DNA of 64,000 bases from the NCBI GenBank assembly GCA_050015075.1, contig JBEKCB010000007.1:109747-173746 (forward strand), given 5' to 3'. Positions 32,472 to 36,439 of the stretch are shown one piece after another (within the stretch, counting starts at the first letter, position 1; the number at the start of each line of letters is the position of its first letter). Position numbers and translations under genes: made by a program. Source of the stretch: Candidatus Brocadiia bacterium. GTDB lineage: Bacteria > Planctomycetota > Brocadiia > CAIUPP01. The notes under the pieces were generated by a model. It was not told where the DNA came from. It saw only the letters and a list, made by a program, of their open reading frames with translations, and did no database searches.

Positions 32472-34724
32472 TCAATCCTTCGCGCCGGCGGCCGCCTCCG
32501 CCAGTCGGCGCGTGGCGGCGAGGTCCGGTTTCCCGCTCGGCAGGAAGGGCAGGCTCTCGACGCGGTGGAAGTCCCTCGGCGACGGCAGCCACAGGTTCGG
32601 CACGCCGCGCTCGGACATTCGATGGAGCAGCGCGCCGGCGTCCAGTTCGGGCCCGGAATAGACGACCACGACTTTTTCCCCGCGCACGCGGTCCGGGAGC
32701 GTCACCACGGCAAAGCTGCGCTCGGCCTCGGGCGACGCCGCGGCGAGGGCGGCTTCGATCACCATGTGCGGCACCATCTCGCCGCCGATCTTGCTGAACC
32801 GCGAGATGCGGTCATGAATGTGGAGGAACCCGTCCTCGTCCATCGCGCCGATGTCCGCCGTCACGTACCAGTCGAGCCGCCGCAGGCCCGGTTCCGGCGG
32901 AGGCGGACCCTCGCGAAACGCCGCCGCGGTGGCGCGCGCGTCATCCATGTAGCGCATCATCACGCTCGGCCCGCGGACGAGGATGACGCCGGGCGCGTTG
33001 CCGGCCGCCGGCCGGAGCGTCTCGCGGTCCGCGACGAGGATGCCCAGTCCCGGCAGCGGGCGGCCGACGGAGCCGACACGCGAGCCGATCTGCTTCACGG
33101 GGCCGTCGCGGACGTCCGGCACGTTGACGGACACGACCGGCGAAAGCTCCGTGCAGCCGTAGCCTTCGGTCAGCGGCAGGCCGAACCGCGCCTCGAACGC
33201 CTCCGCCACCGCCGGGACGAGCTTCTGCGCCCCGGCGACCGCCAGCCGCAGCGAGCGGAACTGCTCCGGCTCGCAGCCGCGCACGTAAAGCGCGAAGAAG
33301 GACGAGGTCCCGGCGATGACCGTCGCGCGGTATTTCGCCACCATGCGGCCGACGCCTTTCGCGTCGAGCGGGTTCGGGTGATAGACCACGCGCATGCGCA
33401 CCGTCAGCGGCGTCCAGAGCGTGGCGGTGAACCCGAACGAATGGAACGGCGGCAGCATGCCCATCATCGTGTCCGACGGGCCGAAGCGCATCACCTCCGA
33501 AAACGCCTCGATGTTGCTCACGATATTGTGATGCGAGAGCATCACGCCCTTCGGCTCGCCGGTGGCGCCGCTGGTGAACATCACCGTGGCCAGGTCGTCC
33601 ATCGCGCCGCGCCGCATCAGCAGGCGCTCGGCGATCGCGTTCGGCGTGATCGCCGCGAGGAGGTAGCACAGCACCCGGTCGCGCCGCGGCATGCCGCGCA
33701 TCACGTCCTCGAGATAAACGTATTCCGGCCGCTCCGGCAGCCCCGTCCGTTGCAGGAGCCCGCGCGAGGTGAAGACCGTCTTCAGCCCGCAGCGCCGGAT
33801 GGCGACGGCGATGGAGGCGCGCGCGCCGGTGAAGTTCAGGTTGACCGGCACGCGGCCGGAGATGAGCGTCGCCGCGTTCATCAGCGCCGCGCCGACCGAG
33901 GCGGGCATCATCATGCCGACGCTCTTCTGCCCGCGACAGCGCCGGTCCATCCAGCGCGAGAGCATCAGCGCGCCCGCGAGCGACGCGCCCCAGGTGAGCT
34001 CCTGGCCGGTCGAGTCGGCCATGCACAGCCGCCGCCATAAGAACGGGCTCGACCGCGCCGCGCGCCAGAACTTGACGTGCAGCGGAAGTTGGAATCGCTT
34101 CCGCAGCGCGAAGGCGTCCGACCCCAGGTCCAGGACCGCGCGGCGCACTTCCGCGGACGAGCTGTCCGGCGGCAGCGGCGCGCCGAACACCACCGTCAGC
34201 GGCCGCGGGATCCGCTTCGGCCGCTTGAAGAAGTAGCGGCCGCCTTCGAAGCTGAAGACGCTGCCCCAAAGCCCGTCCATGTACACCGGCGTGATCGGCA
34301 CGTCCGCCCGGCGCGCAATCAGTTCGAGGCCGCGCTTGAATCCGTGCACGTGGCCGGTGCGCGTCATGCCGCCTTCGGGAAACAGGCAGACGACTTCGCC
34401 CGCCTTGAGCGCCGCGACGACGCCCGCGATGGATGTCTTGATCGCCTCGGGCGCATCATCCGGGGCCACGGGGATCGCCCCGAACGCGCGCACCAGCGGG
34501 CCGGTGAACCACGCGTCGAAGAACTTCCGCCAGATCAGGAACCGAGGCGGCCGCTCCAGGGCGTAGCCGAGGATGATGCTGTCCACGTAGGAAACGTGGT
34601 TGCAGACCAGCAGCGCCGGGCCGCGCGCCGGCAGGTTCCGCGCCCCGATGACCGTGACGCGGTAGAACACCCGCACCAACGGCCGCAGCAGAAAGCGAAG
34701 AATCCGCCACCCGGTGAGATTCAT
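32472..34724 (-). CDS. Aas-like acyltransferase / acyl-ACP synthetase
   Basis: NHVSYVD and FPEG (PlsC); FTSGATGEPKGV, EGYGCTE and RFSKIGGEMV (AMP-binding). Confidence 0.9.
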   Translation of the reverse strand: MNLTGWRILRFLLRPLVRVFYRVTVIGARNLPARGPALLVCNHVSYVDSIILGYALERPPRFLIWRKFFDAWFTGPLVRAFGAIPVAPDDAPEAIKTSIAGVVAALKAGEVVCLFPEGGMTRTGHVHGFKRGLELIARRADVPITPVYMDGLWGSVFSFEGGRYFFKRPKRIPRPLTVVFGAPLPPDSSSAEVRRAVLDLGSDAFALRKRFQLPLHVKFWRAARSSPFLWRRLCMADSTGQELTWGASLAGALMLSRWMDRRCRGQKSVGMMMPASVGAALMNAATLISGRVPVNLNFTGARASIAVAIRRCGLKTVFTSRGLLQRTGLPERPEYVYLEDVMRGMPRRDRVLCYLLAAITPNAIAERLLMRRGAMDDLATVMFTSGATGEPKGVMLSHHNIVSNIEAFSEVMRFGPSDTMMGMLPPFHSFGFTATLWTPLTVRMRVVYHPNPLDAKGVGRMVAKYRATVIAGTSSFFALYVRGCEPEQFRSLRLAVAGAQKLVPAVAEAFEARFGLPLTEGYGCTELSPVVSVNVPDVRDGPVKQIGSRVGSVGRPLPGLGILVADRETLRPAAGNAPGVILVRGPSVMMRYMDDARATAAAFREGPPPPEPGLRRLDWYVTADIGAMDEDGFLHIHDRISRFSKIGGEMVPHMVIEAALAAASPEAERSFAVVTLPDRVRGEKVVVVYSGPELDAGALLHRMSERGVPNLWLPSPRDFHRVESLPFLPSGKPDLAATRRLAEAAAGAKD

Positions 34725-34998
34725 CTGTCCTAACTTATTATCACCATACGTGTTGCGATAACTATATCATAACATGCCTTAACACAGCATGTTATGATAA
34801 ATTGGATTCGTTTTTTCAAATAGCTTTTTACGTCTCAACCTCTTCCCCAAGTGCATCTTGCGATCTGTCAAACGCGAATATATTGTACCATGGCGTATGA
34901 TATCCTGTCAAATCTAACTCATAAGAATTCTAATATTGCGAGTGATCCTTTAGCCTTCAGCGCTATGCGCCGTTGCGCCGCCGAAATCGAGTCGGCCC

Positions 34999-36339
34999 TC
35001 ACTTCGCCGGGGCAACACGGAACTTATACCCGCCGACGTCGCTGAAGTAGATGCGGTCCTGGTTGGCGTCGAACCAGGCCTGCCATCGCTCCGGCGTCCG
35101 GAAGCTCTCCACCGTGTACCGTTTCAGCAGCAGGCGGCCCTTTTCCGCCGTCCGCGCGTCCTTGAGCAACGCAATCATCTGGCCCAGGGCGGCGACGGTG
35201 CGGTTCGACGGGATGTCGGCGGACTTGAGGTCATCGTCCACGCGATAGCCCTTGTCGTAGCAGACAAGCTCCAGGTTATCCTGAAAGTAGTTTACGAAAG
35301 CGTCGTGCTTGCCGAGATACTGCTTTATTAGCTCGGGCGGGAAGGTTCCGCTGAGCGTCTTCTCGGGATCCTTGATCTCGTCAATGATCGAGGCAATCCT
35401 AACCGCGTGCTCTCGCGCGAACTGCACGCGATGGACCAGCGGCGCCACGCCGTCGAACTTGCGGATGTAGCAGACGCAGTTCAGGAAAAGCGCGCGCCCG
35501 GCTTCGGTCATCTGCGAGGGCGGCGAAGAGTAGCCCCACTGTAAAAAGCTCGCATGTCGCCCGACGCCGACGTCGCCGTATTCCTTGCCTGTGTTGTAGC
35601 CTTGCGCCAGCACCTCCGCATCGGGCGAATCGGCGTAGCCGGAGCCATATGAAACAACGCTGCCGTAGTCCTTCCCGCTGTTCTGCACGCGCCAGACTTT
35701 AATCTTCGGAGGCAGCTCCTTGCCGGCCGGCGAGCGGCGGTAGTTTTCCGGCGTCGGCCACATCTCGAATGCGGGCTGAACGGGGAACGGCTTCTGGAAC
35801 ACCTCGTGATTGAGCGGCTCAAACTGAGCCGCGTCGCTCATGCAGTTTCACTCATACCCCGTCTTGAGCCGAAGCTGATTGCCGATCAATCCTCCGGCCA
35901 CGCCGACGGTCACCGTCGCATGGGCATAGTTCTGCGACAGCTTCGGCCGCGGCGCATGGAGGGCCTCCACGCCGTCACCGTCATAATCCAGGATCGCCAC
36001 GTCGAACCCATCGGCGCTCTTGTCGTCGAAGGTCGCCAGGTCGCCGGTCTGGACCTGCGTGAAATACTTGCCCAGGAACTCGACGAAATCCTTCTCGCGC
36101 GCCGAGCCCGGATGACCGGCATAGAGGATGCGCATGGCGATCTTCGCCGGCGGCGCGGGTTCCTCCGCCGCGGTCCCGACGGCGCTGACGATCTGGCTGA
36201 GGTTCATATTGCAGGCCTTGCGCGCGTCCTCATCGGCGGCGGAACGGATTGCCGGCAGGAGCAGAACGGCGACCAGGATGACCACGCTCACGACCACCAG
36301 CATTTCGACGAGCGTAAGACCGCCACGCGCAGTTTTCAT
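34999..36339 (-). CDS. Putative selenoprotein with a prepilin-type N-terminus. In-frame UGA at 35850-35848 joins ORFs 35848..36339 and 34999..35841
   Basis: Minus strand reads ...AAG ACG GGG TAT GAG TGA AAC TGC ATG AGC GAC..., i.e. KTGYE-U-N-C-MSD, in one frame. A hairpin follows the UGA. N-terminus GLTLVEMLVVV...CNMNLSQI. Confidence 0.6.
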
Positions 36340-36439
36340 GGGCGACCCTTTCCCCTGAATAATCGCGTTCATCCGGCGCCATTATACACGCTGGACCGAC
36401 GGAAATGTGTGAGAATCCGGAACGCGCCTATCCGGCTCT

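Follow-up and report, generated by a model that had tools for sequence, protein, structure and literature searches.

One reading frame across an internal UGA

The gene described here lies on the minus strand of a 64,000-nt stretch of DNA from a Candidatus Brocadiia bacterium (contig JBEKCB010000007.1), which is referred to as the window and within which coordinates are counted. Two open reading frames (ORFs), 35848..36372 (174 aa) and 34999..35841 (280 aa, starting with ATG), share one frame and are separated only by TGA-AAC-TGC, just as an earlier note on this DNA, made from the sequence alone, had described. With the TGA read as selenocysteine (Sec, U), the read-through translation is ...LRLKTGYE-U-N-C-MSDAAQFEPLNHEVF..., and the peptide across this codon, ...TGYE-U-NCMSDAAQFEPLNHEVFQK, reads ...LKTGYE-U-N-C-MSDAAQF. 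The whole gene, 34999..36339 (-), comprises 446 codons and a stop codon, and in 96 gene copies homology passes through the internal TGA without interruption. Its start is most likely the ATG at 36339, with an in-frame ATG at 36372 as the alternative, and its true stop is the TGA at 34999-35001. The presumed Sec codon UGA, 35848..35850, corresponds to residue 100 of the core domain described below and to residue 164 if the ATG at 36339 is taken as the start. It is followed by Cys102 (TGC, 35842..35844), its partner in a U-x-C motif, and, 14 positions after Sec, by His114 (CAC, 35806..35808). We estimate a probability of roughly 85% that 36339..34999 (-) is one gene for an exported selenoprotein of ~446 aa that belongs to a widespread, unnamed family.

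With the joined protein as query, a word-indexed protein search returned 415 relatives. The 120 relatives that were listed measure 262-337 aa, and their alignment is confined to the C-terminal 53-61% of the query; their GenBank name is "hypothetical protein", with about 280 aa and a start just past the Sec codon. Since the listed database entries start after the TGA, homologs were examined at the DNA level. Eleven loci were taken from species-representative genomes of Sedimentisphaerales, Phycisphaerales, Brocadiia, other Planctomycetota, Verrucomicrobiota/Limisphaerales, and Lentisphaerae; with two paralogs from the same genome as the window, this resulted in 13 distinct gene copies, among them the window gene. 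All 13 have TGA at the same aligned codon, then x-C, with homology continuing upstream. A metagenome scan yielded 338 relatives, from which 79 loci were kept, and TGA was found in all 83 copies spanning the site. Thus, all close relatives sampled so far are Sec forms: TGA occupies the aligned codon in 96 of 96 copies, with neither TGT/TGC nor TAA/TAG in any of them. Furthermore, the family was detected (E<=1e-20) in 32 of 401 genomes sampled from the phylum, with TGA in 37 of the 38 matches that span the site, and the same TGA recurs in contigs from three independent DNA runs of other studies.

In an alignment of 13 full-length sequences (A1), homology extends upstream as well as downstream of the TGA, with U100, C102, and H114 present in every sequence. 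Among 85 unique 135-nt segments, the sequence L-K-T-G-Y-x-U-N-C-M/L-x-D-A-A-H/Q is nearly fixed around the site, Cys102 is present in every one, and His114 in 83. The entropy before the TGA (0.94/0.55/1.63 for codon positions 1/2/3) follows a coding pattern up to this codon. In the 66 nt after it, third-position variability decreases from 1.63 to 1.07 bits, which is consistent with a constraint of RNA structure on synonymous sites.

More distant homologs were collected by searching the profile of A1 against 1.84 billion cluster representatives (E<=1e-3), which resulted in 1412 matches (clusters at 50% identity). Among the best 150 of these, 102 span the site in one piece; at position 100, 97 of these have Cys, four have Ser, and one has Arg. 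The second Cys, at position 102, is present in 96 of the 102 representatives, His114 in 99, and the complete C-x-C..H arrangement in 93; Glu178 and Asn223 are invariant, and Arg197 and Tyr227 are found in 101 and 99, respectively. Another 16 representatives start exactly one residue ahead of Cys102, as expected for further Sec forms cut at the UGA. The earlier note had named an alignment of homologs at this codon as a check and separate genes for the two halves as a refutation. The alignment gave TGA (96/96 close copies) or Cys (97/102 distant representatives) and no TAA/TAG, and the Cys forms are one continuous protein.

In a quick maximum-likelihood tree (profile positions 114-236, 120 rows, 40 fragments excluded, midpoint root only), all but one of the 13 known Sec genes group with five proteins that have Sec-like starts (SH-aLRT 86; inner clade 99), and this group is nested among Cys forms. 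The remaining Sec gene, L030 (L030:2132-3385; 27% identity), has the motif G-U-T-C-L and a differently placed hairpin, and it is the only Sec gene in a different clade, which otherwise consists of Cys forms. Cys and Sec thus appear to have been exchanged at least twice, with L030 as a second, independent switch.

Regarding the two paralogs from the same genome (L033, G000:C35:35683-36444; L034, G000:C54:1725-2414), each has TGA at the same codon, and L033 contains an additional N-terminal segment of ~100 aa behind its signal peptide. Tandem or adjacent arrays of such genes occur in several organisms, with three copies in L115 and two each in L104, L119, and L028; every copy in these arrays has its own TGA and its own hairpin.

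Predicted decoding of the UGA as Sec

Downstream of the UGA, at 35814..35832 (-), the RNA can form a hairpin resembling a bacterial selenocysteine insertion sequence (bSECIS): GCGGCUCA-GUU-UGAGCCGC, an 8-bp stem with a 3-nt loop that begins with G. The hairpin starts 16 nt and its loop 23 nt past the UGA, it is part of the minimum-free-energy (MFE) fold of the window RNA, and z is -2.37 for the 81-nt stretch. A stem at positions 19-37, counted from the U of the UGA, is present in the MFE fold of 10 of the 13 genome-derived copies. In an alignment of 72 unique, ungapped 54-nt segments (A2), 94.8% of the hairpin cells are paired, compared to 29-49% in slid registers. Compensatory changes on both sides affect four of the eight pairs (17 cells), none of 500 shuffles reached the covariation score, and RNAalifold independently recovered a 6-bp core. 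In pair columns 24-32, for instance, U-A is replaced by C-G in nine sequences, through a synonymous change in an Ala codon and an opposite change from Glu to Gly. According to the legend of Fig. 2 in a 2026 review (PMC13188914), a bSECIS has a stem of 4-16 bp, a loop of 3-9 nt with G in one of its first two positions, a distance of 16-37 nt from the UGA, and an MFE <= -7.5 kcal/mol. With respect to this description, the window hairpin conforms to the model in its 8-bp stem, GUU loop, and 23-nt spacing, and 63 of the 72 unique copies show all four properties, the median hairpin energy being -11.0 kcal/mol.

The earlier note had proposed another hairpin, AAAC/GTTT plus TGAGC/GCTCA. Its arms are complementary in the window, but the structure is not conserved in the 72 homologous segments: in the corresponding columns (3-6/27-30 and 11-15/22-26), pairing amounts to 58.8%, there is no covariation, and 458 of 500 shuffles pair at least as well. 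It has therefore been replaced by the hairpin at 35832..35814. As the loop of the latter lies 23 nt past the UGA, the concern raised in that note about too short a distance falls away.

The components for reading the UGA as Sec, also suggested as a check at the time, are encoded in the genome (4.64 Mb, 93.6% complete). A tRNA-Sec (60.9 bits; SeC with anticodon tca according to ARAGORN) as well as selA (533.1 bits), selB (340.5 bits), and selD (364.8 bits), each above its cut-off, were found, all of them on contig C13. Moreover, selA is present in 32 of 32 genomes carrying the family, compared to 289 of 401 in the phylum sample overall; since related genomes are not independent, this co-occurrence is supporting evidence rather than a statistical test. 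At 3 of 19 loci (L023:3947-5740, L072:4492-7121, and L084:4518-7072), selB adjoins the gene in convergent orientation, with selA next after selB in L072 and L084; apart from these genes, no recurrent neighbor was found in the 19 loci. A Sec-type formate dehydrogenase FdhA was not found in the genome, the best match (G000:C5:50176-52197) being below the family cut-off and free of internal stops. As a side observation, the selD match (G000:C13:3632-4555; model length 311 positions) lies within an open frame of 545 aa, so that this SelD may be fused or extended; the frame has no internal stop, and SelD is not itself a selenoprotein here.

An ordinary stop at this position, whether between two translationally coupled genes, in a broken gene, or through an assembly error, is highly improbable in light of these data. 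Such a stop would agree with the two ORFs given by gene callers, with the C-terminal coverage of the 120 listed relatives out of 415, and with an ATG three codons past the TGA in 67 of the 85 unique copies. Yet 18 of these 85 copies lack an ATG within 10 codons past the TGA, and 12 of the 18 lack GTG and TTG there as well. Across several phyla, all 96 copies have TGA at this codon and none has TAA or TAG, the TGA is identical in three independent runs, and continuous full-length homologs have Cys in its column. The conserved and covarying hairpin and the presence of selA in 32 of 32 genomes with the family likewise speak against a stop and for a Sec codon within one gene.

We regard the gene as a member of a new selenoprotein family that is widespread, mis-annotated, and most likely decoded by an ordinary mechanism. 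Table 1 of the review cited above (PMC13188914) lists 119 selenoprotein families, with an identifier of the Pfam or NCBIfam type for nearly each, and the window protein matches none of the identifiers in that table. Likewise, none of the nine new families in the consulted portion of the deep-Sep report (PMC12013277) resembles it. A description of the family was not found in full-text literature searches, although supplementary tables of selenoproteome papers may list it.

N-terminus, export, and fold

From the ATG at 36339, the 446-aa protein begins MKTARGG|LTLVEMLVVVSVVILVAVLLLP and later contains ...CNMNLSQI. The region 36186..36339 (-) encodes a prepilin-type leader and hydrophobic helix, MKTARGG|LTLVEMLVVV...CNMNLSQIVSAVG, that is, a short basic leader and a Gly, followed by [FLM]-T-L-x-E and a hydrophobic stretch. 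The earlier note had recognized the motif G|LTLVEMLVVV, the CNMNLSQI segment, and the length of ~446 aa, all of which were recovered from the sequence. In addition, this N-terminus weakly matches that of GspG (E 0.0013) and resembles at least 13 other pilin-like N-termini of the same genome (E 1e-10 to 7e-4), e.g., L035:709-1740(-). Two prepilin peptidases (PF01478) are encoded in the genome, with 55 and 44.3 bits, both above cut-off. The leader, G|LTLVEM, the hydrophobic helix, and ...C-x-x-NLSQI are thus as in the prepilin-type (pseudopilin-like) proteins of the PVC group, including the paralogs in this genome, whereas the rest of the window protein is unrelated to pilins.

Sorting the N-termini of the 96 copies by a crude regular-expression scheme, with 11 copies cut at the 5' end and 85 complete, yielded 35 lipobox-like, 47 other or signal-like, and 3 prepilin-like N-termini. 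The latter three are the window and two identical metagenome copies. In the nearest relatives, at 86% and 75% identity, an ordinary signal peptide is joined at ...AVGTAAEEPAPPAKI. The corresponding junction between the pilin-like and the signal-peptide variant lies at 36183..36188, where contigs of three independent DNA runs branch (36185/36186). The branch encodes the signal peptide of L063/L064, and the join is at ...AVGTAAEEPAPP. As the contigs branch into the signal-peptide form in three runs, both forms coexist in one habitat. Judging from the window, L063, L064, and L065, the N-terminal module is a swapped one, with a pilin-like leader or an ordinary signal peptide on the same downstream sequence. 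The prepilin-like N-terminus is therefore a lineage-specific signal-peptide replacement: the pilin fusion reported in the earlier note is real in this lineage but does not extend to the family, most of whose other members have signal-like or lipoprotein-like starts. Taken together, the predicted leaders support an exported location of the selenoprotein.

Behind the junction, 35449..36147 (-) encodes a predicted alpha/beta domain (core residues 1-233) that resembles ThuA and class I glutamine amidotransferases (GATases) and holds the U-x-C...H site. The AlphaFold model of this core (pLDDT 79.4, pTM 0.76) is confident except for residues 99-102 and two loops. Foldseek assigned it to GATase subunits with a probability of 1.00 (2a9v, the GATase subunit of GMP synthase, E 1.2e-5) and also matched it to 4pxy (E 1.9e-4). 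The VIA-align matches were 4jqs_A (Z 11.9, with a root-mean-square deviation of 3.7 across 188 residues), 1t0b_A (Z 11.1), and 3rht_A (Z 10.2). The similarity to these ThuA- and GATase-fold proteins is one of fold: no Pfam, NCBIfam, or PDB sequence match was found for the core with the joined protein, its halves, or Cys homologs. PF06283 (ThuA) matched neither the window protein (E<=1) nor any of 85 Cys homologs (E<=0.001), and no match was obtained with a GATase-family hidden Markov model (HMM), an amidase or peptidase family, or, for the window protein, a thioredoxin-family HMM. Moreover, positions 83/84, which correspond to the nucleophile elbow of GATases, vary among the 102 representatives (S/D/E/G/A and A/V/T/M/P) and are thus not conserved; the U/C-x-C...H motif follows ~16 residues further on, in a protein that is, unlike ThuA proteins and GATases, predicted to be exported. 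The arrangement of triad class I GATases, a catalytic Cys at the elbow with a His-Glu pair near the C-terminus, is not found here. In the ESM Atlas, a natural Cys homolog (P0124) led to clusters of "hypothetical protein", with ThuA and DsbD_N clusters at lower scores.

The C-terminal 143 aa (35002..35430, -) are predicted to form a mostly helical domain (pLDDT 95.2), for which a fold search on its own against 48,161 solved chains gave a best Z of 3.8 and no match with Z>=5. This domain belongs to the long forms and is absent from the short forms L026, both L028 copies, L029, L033, and L034.

Possible function and place among known systems

A mechanism can be proposed from these features. SelB with Sec-tRNA(Sec) would bind the hairpin on the translating mRNA, so that selenocysteine would be inserted at the UGA. 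The prepilin-type leader would target the product to the cytoplasmic membrane, facing outward, and one of the two A24 prepilin peptidases would cleave it; relatives would reach the same compartment via secretory signal peptides or lipoprotein peptides. On the ThuA/GATase1-like domain, Sec would be part of a U-x-C...H site together with Glu178, Arg197, Asn223, and Tyr227. A redox cycle is the most likely chemistry for this site, at about even odds: the selenolate would attack an oxidized substrate, Cys102 would resolve the adduct to a selenenylsulfide, and a periplasmic relay of the DsbD/TlpA type would re-reduce the site.

This proposal draws on domain fusions. Full-length Cys homologs carry a C-terminal DsbD_N domain (PF11412) in 42 of 85 cases and an N-terminal TlpA-like thioredoxin-fold domain in 5 of 85, and two proteins with Sec-like starts also contain DsbD_N. 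The window protein, in contrast to these fused homologs, has neither domain; the genome encodes both separately, as exported proteins. On contig C18 (G000:C18; L142:1156-2908), an exported DsbD_N protein of 370 aa is directly followed by an exported redoxin of 207 aa, and we regard the two as a candidate reducing pair for the selenoprotein. Given these fusions together with the Cys pair and the signals for export, a selenol/thiol redox site outside the cytoplasm appears most likely. For the exported redox selenoprotein that had been suggested for this DNA earlier, Sec is thus supported by the UGA/Cys conservation and the machinery, and export by the leaders of relatives, but the redox role only indirectly, by the DsbD_N and thioredoxin-fold fusions.

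Several observations weigh against parts of this picture. Nine of the 72 unique hairpins deviate from the bSECIS description given in the figure legend cited above: in seven of the nine, G is absent from the first two positions of a 4- or 5-nt loop and occurs at the earliest in the third, while L027 and L030, the two copies that diverge most, do not reach the folding energy, L027 also being without that G. The prepilin HMMs remained below their cut-offs (PF07963, 13.3 bits against 21.2; TIGR02532, 10 against 16.3), which is a weak negative, as both models are very short. The structural model is weakest precisely at the Sec site (pLDDT <50 for residues 99-102) and does not give the geometry of U100, C102, and H114. 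Since the window protein itself has no DsbD_N or thioredoxin domain and its gene neighborhood is not conserved, the redox partner is deduced from fusions in distant Cys homologs. RNA support for the gene consists of one 266-nt metatranscriptome contig on its 3' end. Finally, four of the five non-Cys homologs have Ser at position 100 with His114 kept, which would also suit a nucleophile-His enzyme rather than a disulfide shuttle.

The latter point leads to a rather unlikely reading, in which the same selenoprotein would use Sec or Cys as the nucleophile of a hydrolase- or transferase-type site (Sec/Cys-His-Glu on the GATase1-like scaffold), with Cys102 and the DsbD_N/TlpA-type partners only protecting or repairing the nucleophile in the oxidizing periplasm. 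DsbG protects periplasmic single-Cys enzymes in that manner. The fold agrees with this, but the GATase elbow at core positions 83/84 is not conserved and the order Cys..His..Glu differs from that of the GATase triad. Similarly, the conserved residues have the look of an enzyme pocket (C in 97, H in 99, and E in all 102 representatives, with Arg197, Asn223, and Tyr227 also kept), and the Ser variants retain His114; however, Cys102 matches the first Cys in conservation (96/102), and both are lost together in these variants, as is typical of a redox pair. An amidotransferase family with a Sec nucleophile has been predicted (PMC13188914, Table 1), which speaks for this reading, whereas the absence of any amidase or peptidase family match speaks against it. 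Still less probable, in our view, is a metal site, e.g., for Cu(I), Zn, or Hg, formed by U-x-C and His114, for which the thioredoxin and DsbD_N partners would keep the ligands reduced. TlpA keeps the ligands of Sco proteins reduced, and fusions to TlpA-like domains as well as the invariant C-x-C..H arrangement would suit such a role. Furthermore, the same review (PMC13188914, section 7) includes a U-x-C metal transporter family, SO_0444, and describes interactions with metals for many predicted selenoproteins. On the other hand, metal-handling genes do not recur beside the gene in 19 loci, and the additional invariant Glu, Arg, Asn, and Tyr are untypical as soft-metal ligands. Beyond the redox cycle itself, we tentatively consider, as a speculative extension, that the 1412 clusters represent an undescribed superfamily of exported enzymes with a C/U-x-C...H...E...R...N...Y site on the ThuA/GATase1-like scaffold and a C-terminal domain for which no solved fold is similar. 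In such enzymes, the first Cys or Sec would be catalytic in a new periplasmic activity and would be kept reduced by DsbD_N/TlpA partners, either fused or free, rather than serving as a mere disulfide carrier. If so, the family would be a main client of the Planctomycetota Sec machinery (Sec in 37 of 38 site-spanning matches), with Sec gained at least twice.

Compared to known selenoproteins, the window protein shares an in-frame UGA, many Cys homologs, a bSECIS, and a neighboring Cys with bacterial redox selenoproteins such as the thioredoxin-like Sec.2 (U-x-C, PF13192; PMC13188914, Table 1). It differs from these in its fold, which is GATase1/ThuA-like and not that of thioredoxin, and from thioredoxin-fold selenoproteins with a UxxC/CxxU motif also in having U-x-C. 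The predicted Sec amidotransferase family (NF004836) likewise combines Sec with a fold of the class I GATase type; it has Sec in the elbow (GxUxG), whereas in the window protein the elbow is not conserved, Sec is found in Y-x-U-x-C (Y-E-U-N-C), and NF004836 gives no match at E<=1. The family of the window protein would add to the selenoproteins a fold that classic redox selenoproteins do not use.

Annotation routinely splits selenoprotein genes. As the listed entries start past the Sec codon, both the active site and the export signal of this family are missing from public protein sets, and the 96 UGA sites with a covarying SECIS hairpin offer a clean test set for annotators. The family may also explain why the Sec machinery is kept in a genome in which no Sec-type formate dehydrogenase was found, and it would link a large uncharacterized C-x-C superfamily to the periplasmic DsbD/TlpA reductive pathway. 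The exchange of signal peptide and prepilin leader in one habitat would further constitute a small natural experiment on a change in the anchoring of an exported protein.

With respect to the surroundings of the gene, an Rfam scan of the whole window identified two tRNAs and nothing else. The metatranscriptome contig mentioned above corresponds to 34943-35208 and matches, with full identity, the 3' end of the gene plus 56 nt past the stop; it is a weak hint of transcription of this end and too little to claim expression. A terminator-like site was not detected. The interval from the stop of the selenoprotein gene to the acyltransferase/AMP-binding gene downstream (32472..34724) contains a strong match to a sigma-70-like promoter at 34882-34911 (-), TTGACA-18-TACAAT (11/12), and the downstream gene is thus probably transcribed from a promoter of its own.

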